Notes: generated from the letters alone by a model not told the origin. 64,000 nt of DNA from Poseidonia sp. (GCA_965661285.1 CBFIDD010000003.1:256001-320000); one strand, 5' to 3'. Counted from the stretch's first letter, positions 8,447 to 21,144 are shown. Program-made: numbers and translations.

Positions 8447-8616
8447 TCTTCCACCTCAACTTCGCCAACAAAGGTGACCTCTTGGACACCGGTGTTCTTC
8501 ATGTCTTCATAATCTGCGTACTTGCGGTAGTAATGCTTGAACGTGCTGTCCATCATGCCTACTGCGACGCCGGCCATTCCAATGACGACGGTTGTCATCA
8601 ACAATCTGTATACCAT
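8443..8616 (-). CDS. 57-aa single-TM protein (MVYRLLMTTVVIGMAGVAVGMMDSTFKHYYRKYADYEDMKNTGVQEVTFVGEVEVEE)
   Basis: Hand-translated. GAGGAGG RBS at the end of the upstream gene; starts 3 nt after its stop. Confidence 0.75.
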   Translation of the reverse strand: MVYRLLMTTVVIGMAGVAVGMMDSTFKHYYRKYADYEDMKNTGVQEVTFVGEVEVEE

Positions 8617-8619
8617 TTC

Positions 8620-8898
8620 TTATTCCTCCTCTAGGTTTTCTTGCCGGGCCTTCGGGCTGACCGCTTTAACGACGCCACCGGTCACTGAACCGACGACGTT
8701 GCTGGCGGTCTCGACCGTGATCTTCGTCACTTCACCCGTGGCGTCAACCGCCGCTTTGATGACTCGACTCGAACCAACAGCCAGGTGAACCACGGTCTCT
8801 TCGCCAGCGTTCACCATCTCTTTGACCGCCGATGAAAACTCATCGATGAGAGAGGTGAGGCCTTTGGAGACCTTGTCCACCGCTTTCTTGCCTGACAT
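8620..8898 (-). CDS. 92-aa amphipathic helical protein
   Basis: V/A/S/T/G/K-rich periodic sequence; first gene of a tightly coupled three-gene unit. Confidence 0.75.
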   Translation of the reverse strand: MSGKKAVDKVSKGLTSLIDEFSSAVKEMVNAGEETVVHLAVGSSRVIKAAVDATGEVTKITVETASNVVGSVTGGVVKAVSPKARQENLEEE

Positions 8899-8940
8899 GG
8901 TTTGGGGATAGTGCAGGGGTACATAAGGCGACGAGGGAAA

Positions 8941-8954
8941 TTATACCGGTATAA
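8941..8954. promoter_or_regulatory. Perfect 14-bp palindrome TTATACCGGTATAA (candidate operator)
   Basis: Self-complementary; 43-56 bp upstream of the 8898 start and just downstream of a wHTH regulator gene. Confidence 0.55.
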
Positions 8955-8965
8955 ATTACCCGCTA

Positions 8966-9310
8966 TCATTGGTCGCTCGGGAGATAGAAGAAATCGTCAG
9001 GATAGTACCCCATCCGCACACTGAGGTCGATCCAGCGTCCAATGTCCGACCGCAGGGTTCGTCCGTTTTCGGAAATGGAGTAAACCAGTACGGGATGACC
9101 GCCACGACCACGCGAATCTCGTTCATCGATGTGGATGTAGCCGGCTTCATGCATGCGCTGCAAGTGGAGCCGTAGCTCCTTGCGTTCCACGCCGACCGCC
9201 CGTTCAATGCGCATCAGACGGCGGGCGTCGTCCTCTCGCTCACGCATGCGGGAGAGGTAGAGCAGAATTCGATAGAGCGTCACCGGAAGGTCTCGGCGGC
9301 GTTTTTCCAT
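8966..9310 (-). CDS. Winged-helix (PadR/MarR-like) transcriptional regulator
   Basis: LYRILLYL...ELRLHLQRMHEAGYI...RGRGGHPVLVYSISENGR wHTH pattern. Confidence 0.75.
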   Translation of the reverse strand: MEKRRRDLPVTLYRILLYLSRMREREDDARRLMRIERAVGVERKELRLHLQRMHEAGYIHIDERDSRGRGGHPVLVYSISENGRTLRSDIGRWIDLSVRMGYYPDDFFYLPSDQ

Positions 9311-9331
9311 GATAGGGGGTTGGAGAACCTC

Positions 9332-9496
9332 CTAAATTAAACTGGGGTGCTGCGAGAGCTTGTTGATGGTTTCACGCATCGGTTGGGCGAGGATGAGCAA
9401 GCGGAAGATGAAGGGCAGCCAGAGCACGAACACCACGTAGGCTTCCCACGGACCTGCCGGAGGAAACGCGGGGAGTTGGAGGGGGCTTGCGGCCAT
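9332..9496 (-). pseudogene. Truncated paralog (54 aa) of the N-terminus of 7425..8234
   Basis: MAASPLQLPAFPPAGPWEAYVVFVLWLPFIFRLL aligns with MVEPLQLPEIPPDGPWSAYVLVVIWLPLLFRIL, then stops. Confidence 0.65.
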
Positions 9497-9608
9497 ACTG
9501 CTTCACACCGACATCGGCCACTTACACTTCAACCAAACGCAAAAATGACACTCGGCACAGTGTGTCCTTACCCAATTTCAACCAATTTACTTACTCAGGG
9601 GGTAGTCC

Positions 9609-10544
9609 ATGACCGGACCCCTTGTTCAAACAATCCAGACCTCTGAAACCCCTGCTCAAACCACTGTTGAACCTAAGTCAACAAGGGTATGGACAACCCC
9701 TAGCAATGAAAGTGCGCATTCAAATAGTAAAAAATCTAGAACATCTAGCGTGTTTGGAAATAACAAAAAAAACAAATCAAGAGCTGTTGCTTACGCTCGA
9801 GTATCCTCGAAGCGTCAAGCAGAAGAGGGCGTAAGCCTCGATGCGCAAGTAGAACGTCTGCTTGCTTACGCAGAATTTAGAGGATTAGACCTTGACCCTG
9901 ATGACATTTACATTGATGATGGAATTTCTGCTGCAATCCACTTGTGGTCAAGACCAGCAGGTCGAGCCATGCGTGAAACCATCTATCAGGAACGAGTTGG
10001 TCATTTGCTCGCCCTGAAGATGGATAGGTTGTTTAGAGATGTGCAGGACTGTTTAGGCTCTGTTGATGAGTTGCGAGGCATCGGAGTTGACATCCATATT
10101 CTCGACCAAGACGGAGGAACATTGGATACTTCAACATCAATGGGCAGATTCTTTCTCACCACCATCGCAAGCCTCGCAGAATTGGAACGTGGACAGATTT
10201 CAGAGAGAACAAGGATTGCCATGAAGCACCTCAAAGATAACGCCAAGGTGTTTACAGGTCCAATCTTTGGTTGGAACAGAGATGGTGGCGACATCATTCC
10301 GAATTGGGCCGAACAAGATGCCATCGACTACATGCGGTTCAGACACTTCAAGCAGAATTGGTCAGGCAACAAGATTGCCAAACACCTTGTTGAGATGGGT
10401 CTAACAGGTAAGTTAGGTGGCTCATGGACATCGAATATGGTGCTTCGAACATGTCGTTATCAATTTCATGAAACTCGCAACATGTTTGAGAAGCCTGAAT
10501 GGTGGGGTACTGAACCTTACCACGATGCGGTTGAATGGGATTAG
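9609..10544 (+). CDS. Serine recombinase (resolvase/invertase family)
   Basis: AYARVSSKRQ catalytic Ser, KMDRLFR, DTSTSMGRFF, AELERGQISERT. Confidence 0.9.
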   Translation: MTGPLVQTIQTSETPAQTTVEPKSTRVWTTPSNESAHSNSKKSRTSSVFGNNKKNKSRAVAYARVSSKRQAEEGVSLDAQVERLLAYAEFRGLDLDPDDIYIDDGISAAIHLWSRPAGRAMRETIYQERVGHLLALKMDRLFRDVQDCLGSVDELRGIGVDIHILDQDGGTLDTSTSMGRFFLTTIASLAELERGQISERTRIAMKHLKDNAKVFTGPIFGWNRDGGDIIPNWAEQDAIDYMRFRHFKQNWSGNKIAKHLVEMGLTGKLGGSWTSNMVLRTCRYQFHETRNMFEKPEWWGTEPYHDAVEWD

Positions 10545-11788
10545 AGCGAACGAACGTCGATTTTTCCCGTAACTACTGCTGAAATTAATTCTGTTCGAAA
10601 TTCCCTGAGATGAGCAATCTGCTTTTCTATGATTAATTTAGATGAATCTACTTTTTTACAAAAGTCATCGAGATAGAAAATAATCTTTTTTTGCTCTTCA
10701 ATAGGAGGCATTGGAATGGTCAATGCTTCAAGTTTTTCTTTAGTTAAATGAGCGAATGTTGCCGAATCTGATATCATGTTTACATAACCTGATAATTTCA
10801 AATGAAACATAATGTAATGTAGATATTTTTCTTCAGAAGACGATTTGGCCCTAACTCGATTAAGAGAATTTTGGAAATAGCACTCGGAATCTTCGTACCA
10901 AATGGCTGAACGCCCCACAGTATGGCCACCTTCTGTCACCAACAAGTCCCCTTTCTTTAATCGATAGTGAGACTGCTGCTTTTTTGTAAAGCCCATTTGA
11001 TTAACATTGTCCAACTTAATTTCATCCCAGTGAATATTAGCAGCACGCAGATATGGTTTATAATCGCCGGTTTGTTTTTTTGAATCCAGCATTTTCCCGA
11101 GATCGACCTTGTAAAACCGTTTCACAATACCGTCTTGCCAATGAACTGGTATTTCTGAAAGCCATTCCACAGACGTATCTTTCATTGACACATCTAGATT
11201 AAGGCCCTTGGTAACGGCATTTGTGATGAGGGTTGAGCGTTTTTCTTCTAATAGCAAAAATAATTTTTCTAAATTGCTAATTTTACTATCAATCAGAGTA
11301 GTTTTATTCCCAATGTATCTTACCAAATGTAATTGCTCGTTTATTGGAGGTATCAAAAAGATAGTTCCATTCCAAGTTCCCATATTAAAACTTTCAATGA
11401 TATCTCCAAAACCACGTAACTGTTTTGCTGCACTTCCAAGCATGTATCCAGCGTATTCGCGATTTATATCTCGGTTTAGTTTCACTCTTTGCACGACATT
11501 GCTGTAAATCGAATTATTAATGGGTAAATGTACATATGGAGTTCCATTTCTGGTCAATAACAAGTCATTTGAAGTTGTTCTCTTTATCAAAGGAAATTCA
11601 GAAAATGAAGATTTCATAGGCGTTCTCTGACAAGTGTACAATAATTCATTTCCATAATGCCAATGACTTTTATCAATAACTTCTCCTGCATTTGAACTAG
11701 TATAACAGAACTTGAAAGGAACTATTTTCCAATGACTTGGAACCAAACCAATCCATTCGATGCCTGATTGTTGCTTCGAAGCCGACAT
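10541..11788 (-). CDS. hsdS: Type I R-M specificity subunit (second, very AT-rich copy)
   Basis: GIEWIGLVPSHW, PPINEQ, AVTKGL, PPIEEQ and ISAVVTGKIDV conserved regions; own GAGGTGA RBS. Confidence 0.9.
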   Translation of the reverse strand: MSASKQQSGIEWIGLVPSHWKIVPFKFCYTSSNAGEVIDKSHWHYGNELLYTCQRTPMKSSFSEFPLIKRTTSNDLLLTRNGTPYVHLPINNSIYSNVVQRVKLNRDINREYAGYMLGSAAKQLRGFGDIIESFNMGTWNGTIFLIPPINEQLHLVRYIGNKTTLIDSKISNLEKLFLLLEEKRSTLITNAVTKGLNLDVSMKDTSVEWLSEIPVHWQDGIVKRFYKVDLGKMLDSKKQTGDYKPYLRAANIHWDEIKLDNVNQMGFTKKQQSHYRLKKGDLLVTEGGHTVGRSAIWYEDSECYFQNSLNRVRAKSSSEEKYLHYIMFHLKLSGYVNMISDSATFAHLTKEKLEALTIPMPPIEEQKKIIFYLDDFCKKVDSSKLIIEKQIAHLREFRTELISAVVTGKIDVRSL

Positions 11789-11910
11789 TATGCCTCACCT
11801 CGAAGTCGAATCACCATGCGAATCGTACATGCTAAGCGCAAGTGGACTATGAACACTAAGGCGTTTGTCCCTACTCAATAATAAGGGATAACGCAATGGG
11901 TACGGACTGT

Positions 11911-12576
11911 TTAATTGAACCATGTGGCATAACCTCGCTTTCTCAATTCGAGCGCTACATCTCGTTCCTTCTCAAGCGCCCCAGCTTGTCGATAGAGGGC
12001 ATCACCCAACTCCTCCATGAGATCATGAGCAATACCATTGGGATGCTTGTGTACGATTTCCGAGGAATATTTGTGGCGTTTCCCACCAACCTTCACAGTG
12101 TGAATCTTGTACCTTTCTTCAACGGTTTTCTCCGTTTCTCCCACGTAGAGAAAGTCCGTCCAGTCGCTTTTCTTTCCTCCGTTTTCTTTGGCAAATGATG
12201 GTTTCTCCTCCCAAACACGTCTCTTCAACCGAAGAATGTACACTCGGCGATTCGGCGGGTCATCGTAGAACACACGCCAATGCTTGTTGCGTAATTCTTC
12301 CACCAAATCCTCTGCATATCGGTAGGCCTCAATTTTACTCTCAAAAGAGCGATAATAATCCTTCATGACTGATTTTCCTTTGCTGTTCCAACCGCTGGAA
12401 CTGCTCGAAAAATCTCCAGCGAGATAGGCATTAACCCTTGTCTCTGAAGTCAAGTGCGCAATGGTGATGACTGGCGTCTTTCTCCATCGCTTCGGGTTTT
12501 GCTTGGCCAGTTTCTCCCATCGAGATTTACTCAACCGCTGATTGAGTTCAATGGGAACGACGTGATGGGTCTCCAT
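11911..12576 (-). CDS. GIY-YIG-like nuclease domain protein
   Basis: RVYILRL...LYVGET...EERYKIH...EKERDVALELRKRGY in the C-terminal half. Confidence 0.6.
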   Translation of the reverse strand: METHHVVPIELNQRLSKSRWEKLAKQNPKRWRKTPVITIAHLTSETRVNAYLAGDFSSSSSGWNSKGKSVMKDYYRSFESKIEAYRYAEDLVEELRNKHWRVFYDDPPNRRVYILRLKRRVWEEKPSFAKENGGKKSDWTDFLYVGETEKTVEERYKIHTVKVGGKRHKYSSEIVHKHPNGIAHDLMEELGDALYRQAGALEKERDVALELRKRGYATWFN

Positions 12577-12585
12577 CGAGAATCC

Positions 12586-15500
12586 TCATTCCTCTTCTTC
12601 CAGGTCAAACACGCCTTCGATGTACTTCTGAGCATCCTCAAGGCTGTATTTTGGAGAACTCGCGCCCTCACGGACATAGAAAGCGCGGTCTTCACCGCTG
12701 CCGTACCAGGCAGGACCAAACAAACTGGGCTTCACGTGAATCCAAACGATGGGCTTCTCCTCAACCATGACCACACGCATGTTGCACTGGGCGACAAAGA
12801 CCCGCCCGATGTCTCTCCGGATGATGTTGCCAATGTGGAGCAAGGCTTTGTCCTCGTTGCCAAAGCCATCGACTTCGATGCCGTGGGCTGTGCCCCGGTC
12901 GTCAACACCGATGAGCAGATGACCGCCAAATCGGGAGTTGAGGAACGCGCACACCGATTTGACGATTTGATGTTCGACCGCTTTGTCTTTCTTCTTTTTC
13001 TCTTTGAGGTTGTAGCGTATGGTAGCTTTGAATTCAAGGGTGGTTGATTCACCTTGGGCAATCATTTGCAAGATCCGCTTCTCATCGGTCAAGTCAAACC
13101 CACGTTGCACTTGGTCCATCATTAAAGCGATGACATCTTGCTGGAAATGGTCGTCGTTGAAGAAACGATCAGCAAAGGCTTGGTGCGTGTTGACCTTGTC
13201 AATCATGCTCTCGGTCAGGCGTTCAGTAAAGACCGACTTCACGTTTTCGGGGGGATTGACCTTGAACACCGTCTCAAGATTTTCGTCAGCGTGGAGTGTG
13301 TCGATGAGAGCGCCCAAGAACAGCTTGTCTTCGTCCGTCAAGTCTGCCCCGTAGGTGTCGTTCAGTGTCTCGATTATGGCGGAAAGCGAGTCCAAGTCTT
13401 CCTCACCTGCACCCGTGATGTCCTCGACCGCTCGAGACTTCAGTTCAGCTTCCTTTTTGATAAGCGAGATATCGCCTTCGGAGGTCTGGGTGATTCGTAG
13501 CGAGTCAATGTTCACCATATCCTGAATGAACGTGGGCAACTCTGTCCCTTGCACGGGAAGCAAACGAGCGATATGGCGAGTGAAGTGGTAGAATTCCTCC
13601 AATTTTTGGTCTTTGAAGGTCATGACTCGAGCAAGGAAGCCGTACCCGCGGTAGAAAGAGCGAAGCATCTTCCTGAACTCGGCCTTTTCTTCCTCGGTGT
13701 CGATGGTATCAACGAAGTGCTGGACCTTTTGAGAAAGAAAGGCCACCAGTTCGGGATGGCCTTTGGTATCGTCAAAGAGAATTCGACAAAAGGCTTCAGC
13801 GTCCGTTTCGGTGTACACGTCCTCATCGAGGATATCTCGCTTGCGCTGGTAGATGGCAGCGGGGTCTGATGGACTTTCGAGTAGGGTTCGCTCATAGTAA
13901 TCTTGGAAGGCCGACTGAATGGTTTCGGCATCATTGGCAAAATCAAGAACGAAGGTTTCCTCTTTCCCGGGCGCCACACGGTTGAGACGCGACAGAGTCT
14001 GGACGGCGTTCACGCCACCCAATTTCTTGTCAACGTACATGGTGTGGAGCAAGGGTTGGTCGAAGCCGGTTTGATATTTGTTGGCGACGATCATAATACG
14101 GTATTCATCCTCGTCAAACTTGCTCGCTGTTTTCCCGTCTCCAAAGCCGTTCATGTTGGCTTCCGTGTAGTCCTTGCCGTCGATGGAAATGGTATCCGTA
14201 AAGGCAACAAGGGCCTTGAAGGGTTTCGGGTTTTCCTTTAACCATGCATCGACTGCGAGACGGTACTTGACGGCGTTCTTTCGAGATGACGTCACGATCA
14301 TGGCTTTGGCTTGGCCCTGGATACGTCCGACGGAGTTCTCACAAAAATGGCTCATGATGACGTCCACTTTGTTGCGAACAGTCTCCGGGTGTTCAAGCAC
14401 ATAGCGTCGCAAAATCGCCTTGGCCTTTCTGGATTCGACCTCGGGGTCATCGTCCTCGTCTTTGTTCAGCTTCCAATAGGTGGCGTAGGTGGTGTAGTTC
14501 TGCAGCACGTCGAGAATGAAGCCTTCCTCAATGGCTTGCCGCATGGAGTACAGGCTGTGCGCTGAAAAGCGGTTATCGGGAAGTTTTCGTCCGAACAATT
14601 CGAGCGTCTTCGATTTCGGCGTGGCAGTGAAGGCAAAGACGCTGATGTTCTCTTGCTTGCCACGAGCAGCAATCTCGTCGTGAATGAGGTCTTCGTAATC
14701 CCGGTCCTCTTTTTCCTCGCCGTCTTGAGTCAATACCTTGACCGTGGACTGAGCCATGGAACCACCTTGAGAGGAGTGAGCCTCATCGATGAGAAGGGCA
14801 AAACGCTTGCCTGGAAGTTTTCCGACAGAGTCAACGATGACCGGGAATTTCTGAAGGGTTGTGACAATGATTTGTTTTCCAGACTCGAGCGCTTCCTTCA
14901 ATTGGGCTGAAGTACCTTCAATGCTGGCCACGAGGCCTCGTGTCTTTTCGTAAGCCCTGACGGTGGCCTGGAGTTGTTTGTTGAGGATGCGACGATCTGA
15001 AATAACGATGATGGCGTTAAACACCCGCTCGTCCTTTTCGTCCATGAGTTGGCTCAGGCGATGTGAGAGCCAGGCGATGGTGTTGGATTTTCCGGAACCT
15101 GCCGAATGTTGGATTAGGTAGTTTCCGCCCGCGCCGTCGTTGGATGCCTCATTGATGAGGGTGCGAACGGCGTCCAACTGGTGGAACCGGGGGAAGATGA
15201 GTTTGCCAAGTGCCTTCGTGCGTCGCTTGCCTGTTTTTTCATGGTGCAAGAAGTGCTGAAGAATATCGAGCAAGGATACCTTTGACCAAACCTTGAGCCA
15301 CAGGTAATCGGTCGCATACCCACCGCCAAGAGCGGGGGGTGCGGGGTTTCCTGCTCCACCTCGGTTTCCACGGTTGAACGGAATGAAATAGGTCGATTTG
15401 CCGGAAAGTCGAGTCGTGACCTGAACCTGATGAGTGTCAACGGCAAAGTGGGCCAAGCATCGTCCGAATTTGAGGAAGGGCTCGCCTTCTGGGCGACGGT

Positions 15501-16017
15501 CAAAACGATACTGACGAACGGCGTTGGTTACGTCCTGACCCGTGAGTTCATTCTTCAACTCCGACGTGAAGACGGGGAGACCGTTGAGAAAGAGCCCCAA
15601 ATCGATGGAGTTCTGCGAGGTCGTGCTGTACTTGATTTGACGAACGACCGTCAAGATGTTCTGCTTGAACTTCTCCTCCAATTCCGGGTTTCGGCTCGAA
15701 GAGGGCTGGAAATACACCAGCCGGAACCGACATCCGTAGAGGTCCACGTCGTTGCGAAGCACCGCCAGCGTGCCGCGAAGCGTGATTTCCTTGGCGACAT
15801 GGGTCAAGAACGTGGAACGTGCATCGCCGCCTACCGCTTTCTTCAATTCATCCCACATGTCGAGTTGGGTGGTTTGAATGAATTGAATGAGCGCCTCTGG
15901 ATAGAGACAGAGCGTTGAATCGTACTTGGTGTTACTGCCTTCAAACCAATCCCCGGACGCCGTCATCTGGGCAACGATTTCTTTTTCGAAGGCTTCTTCG
16001 TTGTGTTTTGCGGGCAT
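12586..16017 (-). CDS. hsdR: Type I restriction subunit HsdR fused to a C-terminal Schlafen/AlbA_2 domain
   Basis: D..LFLNGLP...ELKN nuclease motif, QHSAGSGKS, DEAH, TATP, QTGFD. C-terminus GESTTLEFKAT...CAFLNS..GGHLLIGVDD.G. Confidence 0.92.
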   Translation of the reverse strand: MPAKHNEEAFEKEIVAQMTASGDWFEGSNTKYDSTLCLYPEALIQFIQTTQLDMWDELKKAVGGDARSTFLTHVAKEITLRGTLAVLRNDVDLYGCRFRLVYFQPSSSRNPELEEKFKQNILTVVRQIKYSTTSQNSIDLGLFLNGLPVFTSELKNELTGQDVTNAVRQYRFDRRPEGEPFLKFGRCLAHFAVDTHQVQVTTRLSGKSTYFIPFNRGNRGGAGNPAPPALGGGYATDYLWLKVWSKVSLLDILQHFLHHEKTGKRRTKALGKLIFPRFHQLDAVRTLINEASNDGAGGNYLIQHSAGSGKSNTIAWLSHRLSQLMDEKDERVFNAIIVISDRRILNKQLQATVRAYEKTRGLVASIEGTSAQLKEALESGKQIIVTTLQKFPVIVDSVGKLPGKRFALLIDEAHSSQGGSMAQSTVKVLTQDGEEKEDRDYEDLIHDEIAARGKQENISVFAFTATPKSKTLELFGRKLPDNRFSAHSLYSMRQAIEEGFILDVLQNYTTYATYWKLNKDEDDDPEVESRKAKAILRRYVLEHPETVRNKVDVIMSHFCENSVGRIQGQAKAMIVTSSRKNAVKYRLAVDAWLKENPKPFKALVAFTDTISIDGKDYTEANMNGFGDGKTASKFDEDEYRIMIVANKYQTGFDQPLLHTMYVDKKLGGVNAVQTLSRLNRVAPGKEETFVLDFANDAETIQSAFQDYYERTLLESPSDPAAIYQRKRDILDEDVYTETDAEAFCRILFDDTKGHPELVAFLSQKVQHFVDTIDTEEEKAEFRKMLRSFYRGYGFLARVMTFKDQKLEEFYHFTRHIARLLPVQGTELPTFIQDMVNIDSLRITQTSEGDISLIKKEAELKSRAVEDITGAGEEDLDSLSAIIETLNDTYGADLTDEDKLFLGALIDTLHADENLETVFKVNPPENVKSVFTERLTESMIDKVNTHQAFADRFFNDDHFQQDVIALMMDQVQRGFDLTDEKRILQMIAQGESTTLEFKATIRYNLKEKKKKDKAVEHQIVKSVCAFLNSRFGGHLLIGVDDRGTAHGIEVDGFGNEDKALLHIGNIIRRDIGRVFVAQCNMRVVMVEEKPIVWIHVKPSLFGPAWYGSGEDRAFYVREGASSPKYSLEDAQKYIEGVFDLEEEE

Positions 16018-16031
16018 ATTCATCACCAAAT

Positions 16032-17141
16032 TTACCAAACGGAGCCGGAGAGGCTTTCACCAAACTCTGGAATCATCGACACCAACAAACCTGACCGACC
16101 CGATATAAAGACATCCAATCGGCTGGCTACCTTTTCGATGTCCTTCTCGAGAACAGGTCCTGTCATGTTGCGATTAAATCGCTGGTTTCGGTGATGATGA
16201 TTTTTTGACCACGTGTTCATGGGGTATTCCTTGCCCGTGCGCAAAGATGACGATTTTCTCACCCCTTTGATGGCATCGGCGTGCTCTTTGACATGCTCAA
16301 CGAGAACGGTCTCGGCCCGATCCAAGAACAACGGCATGGCCAAGGGGTTGATCACCTGGTCCGTATCTTGTGGCACGGAAACCCATTGATCATGCTCAAG
16401 CCGTTGAAGTTCGAAAAGAAGGAAACCCGCTCTTCGAAGTCGTAAATCGGTGATTGAAGGTGGAGAGGTGGTTGAGGCACTTGGTAAGGCAGAGCCGCTT
16501 GACATCCACAAGCTGTTGTTACCCTTGACCTCAATGCTGCGCCCTCCCCTTGCCAACCAACCGTAGGTGTGGGCGCCGCTGGCTTGACCTGCATCAACGT
16601 CCAAGCAATATTTGATTGAAGCATGCCCAGAGGATACAGAGGTCGGGAGCGGCATCCACCATGCAGAAAATCCACCGACGGGTTTCATCAAGGTCGCGAA
16701 ATCAGGCGACGGCCTGGCCGCTTGGAGCAGGCCACGCTGCACGGTGGTGTGTGGAGCGAAACGGCGAGTGCGGTTCACGACACGGCTGATGTTGAGGTAG
16801 TCCTCACCGGTGGGCTTGAGCGTACCGTCATCAACAATGTCGTACACCTCGAGGTACAAGACGGGCGTGCACGAGTCGGGCAAACCAAGCTTGTCAATGA
16901 GTTCGTAGACCCGATCACCGTAGGACCGTGCGGTGAACAAACCGCAGGGATCGTGGGTGAAATGTTCGATCAGTTCCTCATGAAGACCGAAGCCAGGAAG
17001 ATGGGCCAAACGATGTCGAAAGCCGTGAACCATCCATCGATAGGTTCCTTTGATAGAAGGGTGATGGAGCTCAAACCCGTGCCCTGTTTGCGTGAAGACC
17101 CGGGCCTTTTTCAGGTCGGCCATGGTCTTCGAGGAGGTCAT
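16032..17141 (-). CDS. Hypothetical protein between hsdS and hsdR
   Basis: 369-aa ORF with ATGA overlap to hsdS; no motif recognised. Confidence 0.7.
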   Translation of the reverse strand: MTSSKTMADLKKARVFTQTGHGFELHHPSIKGTYRWMVHGFRHRLAHLPGFGLHEELIEHFTHDPCGLFTARSYGDRVYELIDKLGLPDSCTPVLYLEVYDIVDDGTLKPTGEDYLNISRVVNRTRRFAPHTTVQRGLLQAARPSPDFATLMKPVGGFSAWWMPLPTSVSSGHASIKYCLDVDAGQASGAHTYGWLARGGRSIEVKGNNSLWMSSGSALPSASTTSPPSITDLRLRRAGFLLFELQRLEHDQWVSVPQDTDQVINPLAMPLFLDRAETVLVEHVKEHADAIKGVRKSSSLRTGKEYPMNTWSKNHHHRNQRFNRNMTGPVLEKDIEKVASRLDVFISGRSGLLVSMIPEFGESLSGSVW

Positions 17142-18469
17142 GCAGTGTCCTCCGGGAGTGGATAATCTCGGACGTCGATTTGCCCGGTGACGGCTGCCGA
17201 AATCAATGCTGTTTTGTATTCCTTCAACCTCTCAATTCTGAGATTTAAGGCGCTACGAACATCATCGAATTGTCCTAATCTTTGGTGTAGATAACGAGCG
17301 ATTGACCGTTGTTCCTCAAGAGGAGGTACAGCATGCCACATCGAAGTGATATTTTCTGGCCTTGCTCTTTGATGGCTAGGAGTCACCGATTGCACAACGG
17401 AAGCAAGACGCTGTCTAGTCATTTCACTGCGGAAGAGGTAGAATGCCCACTCAAGGAAACACCCATCTACATTCAGCGGTACAAACTCTGATGAACAAAC
17501 AGTTGGAATACCTCTATTTTTGGCGAGAAGGACCATCCCTTTTATCGGGTTTAATTTTGATACTAACAGGGTTGGCCTTTCAATTAAAAATTTGGAACTC
17601 TCAACCTCCTCAGAGGGTTCAGTCTGTCCATCTCCAGTATCTCGGATGGAGGGGATAGAATAATGAAATACATTCGCTCCAAGGTCTGATGCCATTACCT
17701 GTTTTTTCTTCATTTCTAAAAACCAATCAGTTCGTTGGATTTTCCAGTGACTGGGAACCATACCCACCCATTCAATTCCTGAATCTTTCATCTCTACGTG
17801 TGGATTCAGGCCCTCAGTGACAACTTGTGTGATGATAGCAGATTGCTTTTCGTTAAGTCGCTCGATTTGCTCAATTAGTGGTGATATTGAGGAATTCAAT
17901 TTAGGAATTTTCGTTTTTAGGAATCTTTTTATTCGTTCCTGCTCATTTAGTGGAGGTTGAATTATTTTCAAACAACCCAAATCCGAGGCATTGATTGCAG
18001 GATAACTGACTCCATCAGAGTTTGCGACGACATTTTCAACAAAATAATCTGCAACAATGAAATCTCCAATAGAGTCCTTGCTCCATGAATTATCTGGGCG
18101 AACAACTGCAAAACCGGTTAAAAAAACCATTTCGTGCTTAGGATTGTGAATTTTGCATATGGCCTTCAGGTAGGTTCTGACCGTCGAGACGATGACATCA
18201 CCATCATTCGCCAATCTCCTTGCTCTGGAGGGAGATTTTTCAAAAACCATCTCCTTAGACTCTGTGATTCCATCCTCATACGACACAGATCCAATATCGA
18301 CATAACACATTTCTCGCATAGGATTCGTGTCTTCCGGCAACGTATCGTCGTTAATTGATGAAACGTGTTTCAACGCTAACTCGTTCCAGTGTACTGGTAT
18401 CCTCTTGGCGAAAGTTTTGGAGGGCTTGTAAGTCAAATAGGGTTTTAACTTCGAAATCACCAAATTCAT
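17138..18469 (-). CDS. hsdS: Type I R-M specificity subunit
   Basis: PSRARR, PPLNEQ, MKDSGIEWVGMVPSHW, PPLEEQ, ISAAVTGQIDV. Confidence 0.9.
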   Translation of the reverse strand: MNLVISKLKPYLTYKPSKTFAKRIPVHWNELALKHVSSINDDTLPEDTNPMREMCYVDIGSVSYEDGITESKEMVFEKSPSRARRLANDGDVIVSTVRTYLKAICKIHNPKHEMVFLTGFAVVRPDNSWSKDSIGDFIVADYFVENVVANSDGVSYPAINASDLGCLKIIQPPLNEQERIKRFLKTKIPKLNSSISPLIEQIERLNEKQSAIITQVVTEGLNPHVEMKDSGIEWVGMVPSHWKIQRTDWFLEMKKKQVMASDLGANVFHYSIPSIRDTGDGQTEPSEEVESSKFLIERPTLLVSKLNPIKGMVLLAKNRGIPTVCSSEFVPLNVDGCFLEWAFYLFRSEMTRQRLASVVQSVTPSHQRARPENITSMWHAVPPLEEQRSIARYLHQRLGQFDDVRSALNLRIERLKEYKTALISAAVTGQIDVRDYPLPEDTA

Positions 18470-18484
18470 CCCTCCGTGGTAGAA

Positions 18485-20524
18485 TCAGTTATCGGAATCG
18501 CCTTCTTCGTCGTCTTCGTCGTCTTCCTCATCACCAAAGAGCTCGTCCATCAAGCGATTGATGTCGTCTTGGAGGTCGAGAATTTCTCCCTCTATTTCCT
18601 CCAATGGACGGGGCGGCGTGTAGACGTAGAAATAGCGGTTGAAGTTGATCTCATAGCCAACCTTGCCCGTCTCACCGTCGGTCATGTCGGTGACGCTCTC
18701 GTTGACCCAAGCATCGGGGACGTGCGGCCAAACTTCCTTCTCCATGTAGGCCTCGATGGGGACATCTTGCGGGATACGTTCGGTATCGCGCGAGTCGGTA
18801 TCGTGTTCGGGCTCGCCCTTCTTGTTGGTGCAAACCGCAGCGTTGGCGTCGCGTTCACCGAGTGCTTTGAGGATGGATTTCTTCAGGGCTGCTTTGGGTT
18901 TCAACCCTGCTTGCTTGAGCGCTGCTTCGAGGACGGGCAAGAACGCCGCCCGGTCCGTGTAGAGCTCGTCGTTCATGCCGTTGAGAACATGAACAATGCT
19001 CTGTTGCTCGTCTTCATCGAGTTTCGTGAAGTTCTTCTCTTGGTCAAGTCGCTCGATGCGGTCGGATGAAGCTTGAAAGTTCATTTTTAGCGGTCGGTCG
19101 ACAGTGACCTTTCGATAGCCAAAGAATTCGTTAGGGTAAATTTTAGACACATCAGTGTCGTCTTCAAACGCTCTATAGATTTCCATCACGTTGCCAATGT
19201 GTTCTTCACTCATCTCTCGACGCTTGTTTCCAAGGCTCTTTCGCATGGGTTTCCAAAACGCTTCACCTGAGGCATTGATGAGTTGGACGTGGCCCTTTCG
19301 ACGCTCTTCTTTTCTGTTCGTGAGAATCCAAGCATAGGTGGCAATGCCGGTGTTGTAAAAGATCTGTTCGGGCAAAGCCACGATGGTTTCAAGCAGGTCG
19401 TTTTCGAGCACATAGCGTCGAATTTCAGACTCGCCGGAGTTGGCGTCCCCAGTAAACAAAGGAGAGCCGTTCATGATAACGGCCACTCGGCTACCCCCGT
19501 TCTTGACGCTCTTCATTTTGGCCAGCATGTGGAGCATGAACAGAGTTTGACCGTCGGATTTACGAGGTAGACCGGGCGCAAAACGTCCTTGTTCACCGAG
19601 TTCGTGTTCAGCCTTTACCTCTGCCTGGGCCGCTGACCAGTCAACACCGTAGGGTGGATTAGCGATCATGTAGTGATAGGTTTCGCCGGGAAACAAATCG
19701 TCTTTGAGCGTGTTTCCGAGACGAATGCGTTCAGCGTCTTTTCCACTTTCGCCGGAAATCATCATATCGGATTTTGAGATAGCGAACGTCTTGGGGTTTA
19801 GTTCTTGACCTGAAACCTCAACGATGGCTTTTGGATTGAGGTCTTGGATGCTCTTCTTGGCGATGCTCAACATACCGCCAGTGCCACAGCATGGGTCGTG
19901 AACTTGAAGAATCAAACCAGGCTTGCCAAGACGTTCGGCGTCGGGTTCAACCATGAGCCGTGTCATCAAGGTGACAATCTCTCGCGGGGTGTAGTGTTCA
20001 CCGGGGCTTTCGTTGGTTTCTTCGTTGAATTTTCGAATCAGCTCTTCGAACACATAACCCATGTTGTGGTTGCTGATTTTTTCATAATGAAGATCGAGCT
20101 CGGAGAATTGCTGGAACACAAGAAAGGTCAAGTCGTTTTTGGCGAGCCTGCGAAGTGTGTCCCGGAAATTGAAGTTCTCCAAAATCTCAATCATGTTCGA
20201 TGAAAAGCCGTTGATGTATGTGTTAACGTTGTCCACGATGTTGGCCGGGTCCTCAAGCAGGCGGGTAAAATCAAATTGGGAGACGTTGTAAAAGGGATAG
20301 CCAGATTCCCGCTTCAGAATATCATCAAGGTTTTGGATGCGGTCTTTGAGTTCGGCGTGCCTGGCACGAACGGCGTCCTGAGTATCTCGGATGACACAAT
20401 CAATGCGGCGGAGAACGGTCATTGGGAGAATCACGTCTTCGTACTCTCGAGCGCTAAACGGACCACGCAGGGACTTGTCAGCCACGTTAAAGATAAAACT
20501 CACAAAGTCATTCGGTTCTTTCAT
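18485..20524 (-). CDS. hsdM: Type I R-M N6-adenine methyltransferase
   Basis: ILPMTVLRR, GEHYTPRE, DPCCGTGGM (motif I), NPPY (motif IV), GYEINFNRYFY. Confidence 0.95.
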   Translation of the reverse strand: MKEPNDFVSFIFNVADKSLRGPFSAREYEDVILPMTVLRRIDCVIRDTQDAVRARHAELKDRIQNLDDILKRESGYPFYNVSQFDFTRLLEDPANIVDNVNTYINGFSSNMIEILENFNFRDTLRRLAKNDLTFLVFQQFSELDLHYEKISNHNMGYVFEELIRKFNEETNESPGEHYTPREIVTLMTRLMVEPDAERLGKPGLILQVHDPCCGTGGMLSIAKKSIQDLNPKAIVEVSGQELNPKTFAISKSDMMISGESGKDAERIRLGNTLKDDLFPGETYHYMIANPPYGVDWSAAQAEVKAEHELGEQGRFAPGLPRKSDGQTLFMLHMLAKMKSVKNGGSRVAVIMNGSPLFTGDANSGESEIRRYVLENDLLETIVALPEQIFYNTGIATYAWILTNRKEERRKGHVQLINASGEAFWKPMRKSLGNKRREMSEEHIGNVMEIYRAFEDDTDVSKIYPNEFFGYRKVTVDRPLKMNFQASSDRIERLDQEKNFTKLDEDEQQSIVHVLNGMNDELYTDRAAFLPVLEAALKQAGLKPKAALKKSILKALGERDANAAVCTNKKGEPEHDTDSRDTERIPQDVPIEAYMEKEVWPHVPDAWVNESVTDMTDGETGKVGYEINFNRYFYVYTPPRPLEEIEGEILDLQDDINRLMDELFGDEEDDEDDEEGDSDN

Positions 20525-20589
20525 GACGATTTGTGACAGGCTACAGTACTTGAAGAAACTGTAATGTTGAATTTGTGCTAGGAATCACC

Positions 20590-21144
20590 ATGGACGTCTT
20601 CTCCCACTGGCTCTGGGGCGTGCTCATCACCCGCAAGCACGTCAATTGGAAGGTCGCCGGACCGATGAGCGTCCTGCCCGATCTCCTCGCCTTTGTCCCG
20701 TCCTTCGTCTACTCCACGATGCACGGCCTCGAGCGCCCCACCGTGGACGACACCACCGTGACCTCGGACTTCCCCGCCATCGCCTGGGACATGTACCGGT
20801 ACACCCACAGTGCGGTGGTCGTGACCGTCGCCGTGCTCCTGACCTGGTGGATGTTCACCCGATTCTCAGGCTCTCGCTTTGAGTCGCAATTTGCACAGCA
20901 ACACCGCTCCAAACCCCTGATGATGGCCTTCCTGCTCTGGCTGCCGTGGTACTCCAACATCCTGCTGGATATTCCCACCCACACGCTGCAGTTCTTCCCC
21001 ACCCCGGTGCTCTACCCCCTCTCCGATTTCGGCGTTGACGGCACCCGGTGGTCCGACCCCGTCATCCTCGTGCCCAACGTCGTCTTGCTTGCAGGGCTGT
21101 GGTTTTACGTGAAGCGGAAAGACCGGCTGACACCCACGGTTTGA
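20590..21144 (+). CDS. Membrane-bound metal-dependent hydrolase (YdjM-like)
   Basis: SHWLWG, LPDL, YTHS, ILLDIPTH; several TMs. Confidence 0.65.
   Translation: MDVFSHWLWGVLITRKHVNWKVAGPMSVLPDLLAFVPSFVYSTMHGLERPTVDDTTVTSDFPAIAWDMYRYTHSAVVVTVAVLLTWWMFTRFSGSRFESQFAQQHRSKPLMMAFLLWLPWYSNILLDIPTHTLQFFPTPVLYPLSDFGVDGTRWSDPVILVPNVVLLAGLWFYVKRKDRLTPTV

Follow-up and report, generated by a model that had tools for sequence, protein, structure and literature searches.

A type I restriction subunit ending in a Schlafen-type domain, within a conserved defence island of Poseidonia sp.

Contents of the locus

The DNA described here is a stretch of 64,000 nucleotides from Poseidonia sp. (GCA_965661285.1 CBFIDD010000003.1:256001-320000), referred to below as the window, with positions counted from its first nucleotide. 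A gene on its minus strand, hsdR::Slfn, encodes the restriction (R) subunit HsdR of a type I restriction-modification (R-M) system, and the analysis confirmed that this subunit is complete and ends in an intact Schlafen (Slfn)-type domain. The gene belongs to a defence island of seven genes in the order hsdM-hsdS-X369-hsdR::Slfn-221aa-hsdS-serine recombinase, in which X369 and 221aa are conserved genes that belong to no family. The coordinates of the genes and of the domains of the fused protein are given in Table 1, together with the evidence for each.

The open frame of hsdR::Slfn runs without interruption over 12586..16038 (-) and comprises 1150 amino acids when counted from the first TTG (16038). 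Residue numbers are counted from that TTG throughout; for a start at the ATG at 16017, seven must be subtracted. Another in-frame ATG is located at 16023, two codons upstream of the ATG at 16017, and the comparison of sequences indicates that one of these two is likely the true start. An earlier reading, made from the sequence of the window alone (hereafter the sequence-only reading), had chosen the ATG at 16017, and that choice is sound because close homologues start at MPAKHNEE or slightly upstream, by a few codons.

Table 1. Features of the hsdR::Slfn locus (dN/dS, ratio of nonsynonymous to synonymous substitution rates; GC, fraction of guanine plus cytosine; pLDDT, predicted local distance difference test; pTM, predicted template modelling score; SF2, superfamily 2)
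Feature	Position	Strand	Evidence
hsdR::Slfn, type I restriction subunit with C-terminal Schlafen domain	12586..16017	-	1143 amino acids from ATG at 16017; stop 12586-12588
Schlafen/AlbA_2 domain, single lobe, residues ~985-1150	12589..13086	-	Pfam PF04326 63.7 bits; AlphaFold2 pLDDT 94.5, pTM 0.89; dN/dS 0.040
Ex4ExK catalytic motif (E997-S-T-T-L-E1002-F-K1004)	13027..13050	-	aligned to ESQSIEFK of the SLFN11 N-domain
SF2 translocase motor (GSGKS314, DEAH418, TATP471, QTLSRLNR680) and T1R_D3-like domain	13939..15192	-	Pfam SWI2_SNF2 4.5e-22, ResIII 9e-14, T1R_D3-like 1.1e-12
HSDR_N PD-(D/E)xK nuclease region (D146, E160, K162)	15397..15675	-	Pfam HSDR_N 2.7e-13; residues kept in 120-121/121
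X369, conserved 369-amino-acid protein without family, translationally coupled	16032..17141	-	4-nucleotide overlap with hsdS; 14 nucleotides before hsdR
hsdS, specificity subunit, 443 amino acids	17138..18469	-	PADLOC Specificity_I 5.7e-76, full length; Pfam Methylase_S
hsdM, type I methyltransferase, 679 amino acids	18485..20524	-	Pfam N6_Mtase 1.1e-58, HsdM_N 3.1e-20; PADLOC MTase_I 6.7e-262, 4-663 of 661 profile positions
221-amino-acid conserved protein without family	11911..12576	-	starts 9 nucleotides after the hsdR stop
Second hsdS, 415 amino acids, GC ~0.40	10541..11788	-	full-length match to PADLOC Specificity_I (1e-84); hsdS also at this place in L016, L018, L020, L021
Small serine recombinase, 311 amino acids	9609..10544	+	convergent with second hsdS, 4-nucleotide overlap; NCBIfam partial matches XisF, CcrB, IS607-type serine recombinases
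Defence island, 11.3 kb, insertion relative to a same-genus genome	9262..20587	.	flanks 107 nucleotides apart in G407:C4; GC dip

The Schlafen-type tail

The sequence-only reading had placed a Schlafen/AlbA_2 domain at 12600-13080 and quoted from it GESTTLEFKAT, VCAFLNS and GGHLLIGVDD, all of which are found in the translation. The folded domain corresponds to nucleotides ~12589-13086, in good agreement, and its assignment was borne out by Pfam: SLFN_AlbA_2 (PF04326) matches residues 997-1129 (nucleotides 12652-13050) with an E-value of 2.9e-17 and 63.7 bits, compared with a gathering score of 25.3. In a six-frame search of the organism's own genome, the same domain scored 68.6 bits and was the only AlbA_2 domain found.

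When the tail was compared by phmmer with the N-domain of pig SLFN11, ESTTLEFK aligned with ESQSIEFK, and GGHLLIGVDDRG aligned with GGSLFIGVDDKS. The motif Ex4(E/D)xK is reported to be catalytic in prokaryotic Schlafens (PMC13056530). The claim that the tail retains this motif together with acidic residues holds among its relatives as well: in 42 fused tails, E997 and K1004 are each retained in 41 and E1002 in all 42. Retention is also complete (42/42) for S998, R1008, N1034, G1038-G1039, D1057 and D1063, and position 1047, which is D in the window protein, is acidic (D or E) in every one.

A structure of residues 980-1150 was predicted by AlphaFold2 from an alignment of 50 rows (pLDDT 94.5, pTM 0.89). 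The best match found by Foldseek in the PDB was DIP2311 (3lmm; E 2.6e-6, TM 0.61); the DNA-binding domain of human SAMD9 (7ksp), the tRNase domain of rat SAMD9 (9o0d), SLFN14, SLFN11, SLFN13 and a RecG-related N-domain were also among the best matches. Fourteen PDB structures matched at E<=1e-3, and those listed are AlbA_2, SAMD9 and SLFN structures. The modelled tail has an alpha+beta fold resembling the C-lobe of Schlafen, and it consists of one lobe, unlike the two-lobed mammalian core.

When the window is compared with the related locus L016, the tail has a dN/dS of 0.040 (dS 0.77) and the HsdR core one of 0.037. The Schlafen tail is under purifying selection, the same as the HsdR core.

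The HsdR portion

The remainder of the protein had been called a complete HsdR, and every nuclease and motor motif is indeed present. The putative nuclease residues D146, E160 and K162 are conserved in 120-121 of 121 aligned HsdR relatives, and Walker A GSGKS, DEAH, TATP and QTLSRLNR (motif VI) are each retained in all 121; the predicted nuclease and translocase are therefore motif-complete. Pfam assigned residues 122-214 to HSDR_N, 283-528 to SWI2_SNF2/ResIII and 643-700 to a T1R_D3-like domain, the PADLOC profile REase_I called the fused protein a type I restriction endonuclease (2.9e-35), and residues 637-808 matched structures of EcoR124I HsdR by phmmer (6.5e-12). Upstream on the same strand and in the same tightly packed operon are cognate full-length hsdM and hsdS genes. 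The HsdR portion closes with a helical C-terminal region, the part that docks on the methylase core in known enzymes. Classical HsdR, as represented by EcoR124I (PDB 2w00), resembles the window protein in its nuclease motif, its motor motifs, its domain order and its association with cognate hsdM and hsdS; the window protein differs in having a Slfn domain of ~165 residues added at its C-terminus, and in falling below the NCBIfam cut-off for HsdR.

Fusion among relatives

A search with the tail alone recovered eight fused proteins over their full length, with tail identities of 53-94%, as well as two proteins of other composition: P0015, a methylase-Slfn protein whose domain is 38% identical, and P0016, a DUF262-Slfn protein. 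When the HsdR core was the query, PF04326 was found in 41 of the best 120 matches (1098-1189 amino acids, and one of 1315), which is not a frequency because the rows are kin and represent only the top slice of 8000 candidates. The other 79 have no PF04326 and are 978-1054 amino acids long, from which it follows that an unfused HsdR ends where the tail begins (~1000 amino acids). One fused homologue, P0014 (1098 amino acids), loses the Slfn frame in mid-domain (the hidden Markov model match ends at 1064, and an unrelated tail follows), and probably represents a copy that has been frameshifted or broken.

A tree of HsdR cores with the tails removed was built by FastTree from 121 rows including the query, 42 of them fused. 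The query falls within a clade of 21 rows, every one of them fused (support 100), and a second clade contains 18 fused rows (proteins of ~1170-1189 amino acids) and four unfused ones. The label fused or unfused changes at least six times on the tree, compared with ~35 times when labels are shuffled. Together, the all-fused clade of 21 and the small number of changes indicate that the fusion is stably inherited.

These relatives also bear on whether the gene is an artefact, either a misassembly, which the sequence-only reading had named among the outcomes that would overturn it, or a decaying fusion without function. Such an explanation, for which no evidence emerged, is exceedingly improbable and misassembly was rejected: the same unbroken fused frame is present on nine metagenome contigs representing ~4 lineages, one contig of 3,338 nucleotides from an independent marine run (X3) crosses the junction and spans 11904-14000 without a break, fusion is seen in 41 of the 120 best relatives, and dN/dS is 0.04. 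In the RNA libraries X19 and X20, short contigs of a relative are found over 12629-13509, including an X19 contig of 588 nucleotides that spans the HsdR-Slfn junction (12786-13373); these contigs are not proof of transcription because such libraries can contain DNA.

Closer to the source organism, the tail was matched in none of the 14 same-genus genomes (among those sampled from 400 further genomes of the phylum). Slfn matches were found in 57 of the 400; apart from the window's own gene, no HsdR-Slfn fusion was found in these 57, in which the frames listed are at most 718 amino acids long and mostly ~370-470. A scan of genome contigs for the Slfn domain yielded two loci of other architectures, uninformative about the fusion, encoding Slfn proteins of 514 and 388 amino acids. 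The nearest relatives of the tail outside HsdR (33-43% identical) are proteins of 370-514 amino acids in which the N-terminal half lacks annotation and the Slfn domain is at the C-terminus (L003:8933-10477 and L002:9296-10462; also in L005 and L008). The gene for the 388-amino-acid Slfn protein in L002 is located ~1.2 kb downstream of a GmrSD_N gene.

The HsdR-Slfn architecture is common in sequence databases and unstudied, and because it is common, its novelty is lower than the sequence-only reading had assumed. What is added here is the conserved seven-gene island around it, with two unannotated protein families.

The island and its gene order

In contig 4 of a genome of the same genus (G407), the matches to window positions 8591-9261 (87%) and 20588-21124 (93%) are only 107 nucleotides apart; therefore, 9262-20587 is an insertion of 11.3 kb. 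The GC fraction is 0.40-0.53 inside the island and ~0.58-0.60 outside, which fits insertion. Genes within the operon are closely spaced: hsdS and X369 overlap by 4 nucleotides, X369 and hsdR are separated by 14, and the gap of 9 between hsdR and the 221-amino-acid gene contains GAGGA.

A metagenome scan with the X369 alignment found 13 related loci. Nine of the 13 have hsdM, hsdS (full, half or none), X369 and hsdR::Slfn, followed by a homologue of the 221-amino-acid gene, and these nine amount to ~4 lineages because L016-L020 and L023-L026 are near-copies. Two of the remaining four end inside hsdR and two are too short to tell. In L016, L018, L020 and L021, hsdS follows the 221-amino-acid gene, as in the window. 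This conserved order around hsdR::Slfn, including two genes without family, is new here. It also qualifies the description of the locus as a single-polypeptide system: the fusion itself stands, and the scope was too narrow, given that the X369 and 221-amino-acid genes always accompany the fused gene in the informative loci.

X369 is directly upstream of hsdR::Slfn in every related locus that shows the place. Seventeen representatives were found at E<=1e-3 among 1.84 billion proteins, sharing the conserved motifs AGQASGAH..GW.ARGGR, RAGFILFELQ and INPLS.P..LD..E, and dN/dS is 0.12. X369 has no match in Pfam, PADLOC, NCBIfam or PHROGs; its AlphaFold2 model (pLDDT 68.9) has no fold match in the PDB at E<=1e-3, and a profile search of PDB sequences was also empty. 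A resemblance to Rpb2 was dropped as the recognition in ESM Atlas was low (score 0.86, below the level worth following). Prediction of a complex of the Slfn domain with X369 gave scores of 0.01 and 0.00 against a mark of 0.32, which bear neither way on binding.

The 221-amino-acid gene is immediately downstream of hsdR::Slfn in nine of nine informative loci. Nothing significant was found for its product in Pfam (E<=5), in PHROGs or by comparison of a five-sequence profile with the PDB. Its nearest ESM Atlas clusters are T5orf172 and GIY-YIG (score 0.94), and the pattern VYI...YVGET...R..H appears GIY-YIG-like by eye. A resemblance to GIY-YIG/T5orf172 is offered as a lead only; searches with hidden Markov models gave no confirmation, and the fold is not claimed. 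The protein is 54% identical between the window and L016, compared with 94% for the flanking hsdR, and the slot is accordingly mosaic. As both genes are strictly linked to the fused HsdR, X369 and the 221-amino-acid protein are candidate new regulators.

Relation to known systems

A precedent in which a suicide effector that cuts RNA is physically associated with a type I R-M enzyme is PrrC with EcoprrI. PrrC is encoded separately, differs in fold and has an ATPase domain, it is activated by a phage peptide that inhibits restriction, and prrC presumably occupies the slot between hsdS and hsdR in the prr locus. In contrast, the effector here is a Schlafen fold fused to HsdR itself, and no open reading frame of the operon matches a PrrC-type protein (ATPase N-domain plus anticodon nuclease domain) in Pfam, NCBIfam or PADLOC.

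The sequence-only reading had relied on Schlafen core domains being tRNA/rRNA endonucleases, and experiments in recent reports have established the domain family as antiphage tRNase effectors (PMC13056530; PMC13462974; bioRxiv 10.64898/2026.05.29.728809). The report of 2026 that presents prokaryotic Schlafens (pSlfn) as antiphage tRNases fused to sensors catalogues 5,930 proteins with 55 domain compositions, and describes an Ig-like-Slfn protein that cleaves the anticodon arm of tRNA after binding a phage protein (PMC13056530). The window protein resembles the pSlfn of that report (RorSlfn5, Ig-like-Slfn; EcoSlfn7, DUF262-Slfn) in its PF04326 domain and Ex4(E/D)xK motif, in the joining of one lobe to a further module, and in its defence-island setting; it differs in that the partner is a complete R subunit, comprising a DNA nuclease and a motor, instead of a dedicated sensor, and in the C-terminal position of Slfn. 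The words HsdR, ResIII, SNF2, methyltransferase and endonuclease are missing from the main text of PMC13056530, the composition list being in its Supplementary Table 2.

Coupling of pSlfn effectors to R-M is already known, and two kinds of fusion have been published, one to R-M methylases and one to HsdS: Slfn domains are fused directly to R-M methyltransferases in 'Cluster 3' (PMC13462974), and a Slfn-GHKL module, 'Schlatpase', is fused to HsdS (bioRxiv 10.64898/2026.05.29.728809). The window protein shares with these the covalent coupling of Slfn to R-M. The published fusions involve the M or S subunit, some with a GHKL ATPase, whereas the fusion here involves the R subunit and has no GHKL domain. 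A fusion of HsdR with Slfn is undescribed in the literature passages on Schlafen and type I restriction that were searched, supplements lying outside that search. More than half of defence-linked Schlafens are found with R-M or other nucleases, and the authors who described this speculate that products of DNA cleavage are sensed, leaving open in their account how R-M-associated Schlafens are activated (PMC13462974). Single-lobe Slfn domains are described as having to dimerise to rebuild a bilobed nuclease (bioRxiv 10.64898/2026.05.29.728809).

Another parallel is human SLFN11, in which binding of single-stranded DNA to the helicase domain activates the tRNase (PMC13056530). SLFN11 and other long Schlafens likewise combine a Slfn tRNase with a nucleic-acid-dependent ATPase or helicase in one polypeptide. 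The placement of the ATPase differs, being an SF2 translocase N-terminal to Slfn here and a helicase of superfamily 1 (SF1) type at the C-terminus of SLFN11, as does the number of Slfn lobes, which is one in the bacterial domain and two in the human protein. The likeness is convergent, not orthology. This parallel between motor ATPases joined to Slfn tRNases widens the interest of the fusion.

Proposed mechanism and alternatives

On a slight balance of probability, the locus encodes a type I R-M system whose R subunit carries an RNA-directed Slfn effector that is fired by the DNA-engaged complex. Residues 1 to ~985 constitute a standard HsdR and the last ~165 a predicted single-lobe pSlfn nuclease with an intact Ex4ExK motif. 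By analogy with published pSlfn, we infer that the tail is a metal-dependent RNase acting on tRNA, and that it would be active only after pairing with another lobe. The R2M2S1 complex would be the sensor of infection, and in the resting complex the two Slfn lobes would be kept apart and inactive. Once unmodified foreign DNA is engaged, the HsdR subunits might meet, for example when translocating complexes stall or collide; pairing of the two Slfn lobes would then create the active, bilobed enzyme, tRNA would be cleaved, and translation would stop while the DNA is being restricted. Engagement of DNA, or collision upon it, is a speculative trigger, and any roles of X369 and the 221-amino-acid protein are equally speculative. 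The fullest version of the proposal, in which the type I complex is the sensor, each HsdR carries half a Schlafen, the bilobed enzyme forms only when two tails meet at the collision that licenses DNA cleavage, and X369 and the 221-amino-acid protein are obligatory regulators or co-effectors, is doubtful as a whole.

One enzyme may thus attack both the invading DNA and the translation machinery of the cell. The question at stake is whether there is a mechanistic link between restriction and the arrest of translation, or whether the RNase serves as a backup for when restriction is blocked. If the R-M complex is the sensor, one molecular event would fire both DNA restriction and translation shut-off. 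Of the R-M subunits, R alone signals that unmodified DNA has been contacted, and a tRNase joined covalently to it offers the simplest system for addressing that question. The island also supplies two unannotated protein families, X369 and the 221-amino-acid protein.

Several points weigh against an RNA-directed effector on a type I R subunit. The RNase activity of HsdR-Slfn proteins is extrapolated from published pSlfn, and the trigger is speculative. The AlbA_2 fold also binds DNA, and the SAMD9 DNA-binding domain with DNA (7ksp) is among the best fold matches of the tail; fused relatives bear NCBI titles such as 'RNA-binding domain-containing protein' or 'putative DNA binding domain-containing protein'. 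The NCBIfam HsdR model TIGR00348 scores 184.2 bits, under its cut-off of 284.55, and for that reason the HsdR lineage is considered divergent; it still reads as a member of HsdR, since PADLOC REase_I and four HsdR-type Pfam domains pass. Finally, the two conserved genes without family indicate that the fused protein may need partners, and the collision idea leaves them unexplained.

The principal alternative, put forward in the sequence-only reading and neither supported nor refuted here, is that the Slfn RNase is a guard, silent in the intact R-M complex and unleashed when that complex is disabled or distorted by a phage anti-restriction protein (Ocr, ArdA or Stp-like), as an abortive-infection backup like PrrC with EcoprrI. 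The architecture and the conservation data (PF04326, motif retention, dN/dS) fit a guard just as they fit a sensor, R-M-linked suicide RNases are an accepted theme, with Schlafen RNases beside BREX described as 'backup suicidal effectors' (PMC12839542), and X369 occupies the slot between hsdS and hsdR, presumably that of prrC in the prr locus, and could be the sensor of an inhibitor. However, the sequence offers no sign that anti-restriction proteins are sensed, no PrrC-like protein or known anti-restriction sensor was recognised (X369 and the 221-amino-acid protein are empty in Pfam, PADLOC, NCBIfam and PHROGs), and there is no evident route from a methylase core bound by a mimic to the pairing of Slfn lobes. 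Moreover, the pSlfn characterised in the reports cited above need an activating signal, whether a phage protein, cA4 or target DNA, and activation by loss of an inhibitor is not among the cases they describe. Published pSlfn oligomerise to become active once a sensor has fired, which suits activation by the DNA-engaged complex at least as well; that activation is favoured here, and the guard is regarded as unlikely.

It is also conceivable, and quite improbable, that Slfn is an accessory domain that binds or cuts nucleic acid in cis, whether to grip DNA, to clear transcripts or R-loops, or to nick DNA, with no shut-off of translation and no abortive infection. The binding of double-stranded DNA by the AlbA_2 fold in SAMD9 (7ksp), the database titles that name a DNA- or RNA-binding domain, and the tethering of Slfn to a DNA translocase would all suit such a role. 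So would the four unfused proteins nested in a mostly fused clade, from which it appears that the Slfn domain can be lost without losing HsdR. An accessory role is made less likely by conservation of the catalytic signature in 41-42 of 42 fused tails, which pure binding would not need, and by the cleavage of tRNA reported for RorSlfn5, Cash and SLFN-pAgo alike (PMC13056530, PMC13462974, bioRxiv 10.64898/2026.05.29.728809).

The second hsdS, the recombinase and the island ends

The island has two slots for hsdS. In the related loci, the upstream slot is occupied by a full or half-size hsdS or is empty, and the window's upstream HsdS shares, over its N-terminal part, 85-89% identity with the downstream hsdS of L020 and L021; these sequence comparisons suggest that specificity genes have been exchanged between the two slots. 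A shufflon, in which the recombinase would invert hsdS, was considered and dropped: the two hsdS genes have no long shared repeats and are on the same strand.

The locus L018 has a convergent serine recombinase of 311 amino acids in the same position, 96% identical to that of the window. Small serine recombinases are described as markers of defence cargo (PMC13552941), and the one found here is probably the mobility gene of the island.

A 22-nucleotide imperfect inverted repeat is located near the ends of the island (9414-9435 and 20924-20945). Its right arm is ~340 nucleotides outside the mapped junction at 20587, and similar arms are found at equivalent places in L018, L019 and L020. In contig 3 of the congener G407, matches to window positions 9340-9543 and 20588-21130 are ~720 nucleotides apart. 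These observations suggest a recurrent integration hotspot, or the ends of an element, at the borders of the island.

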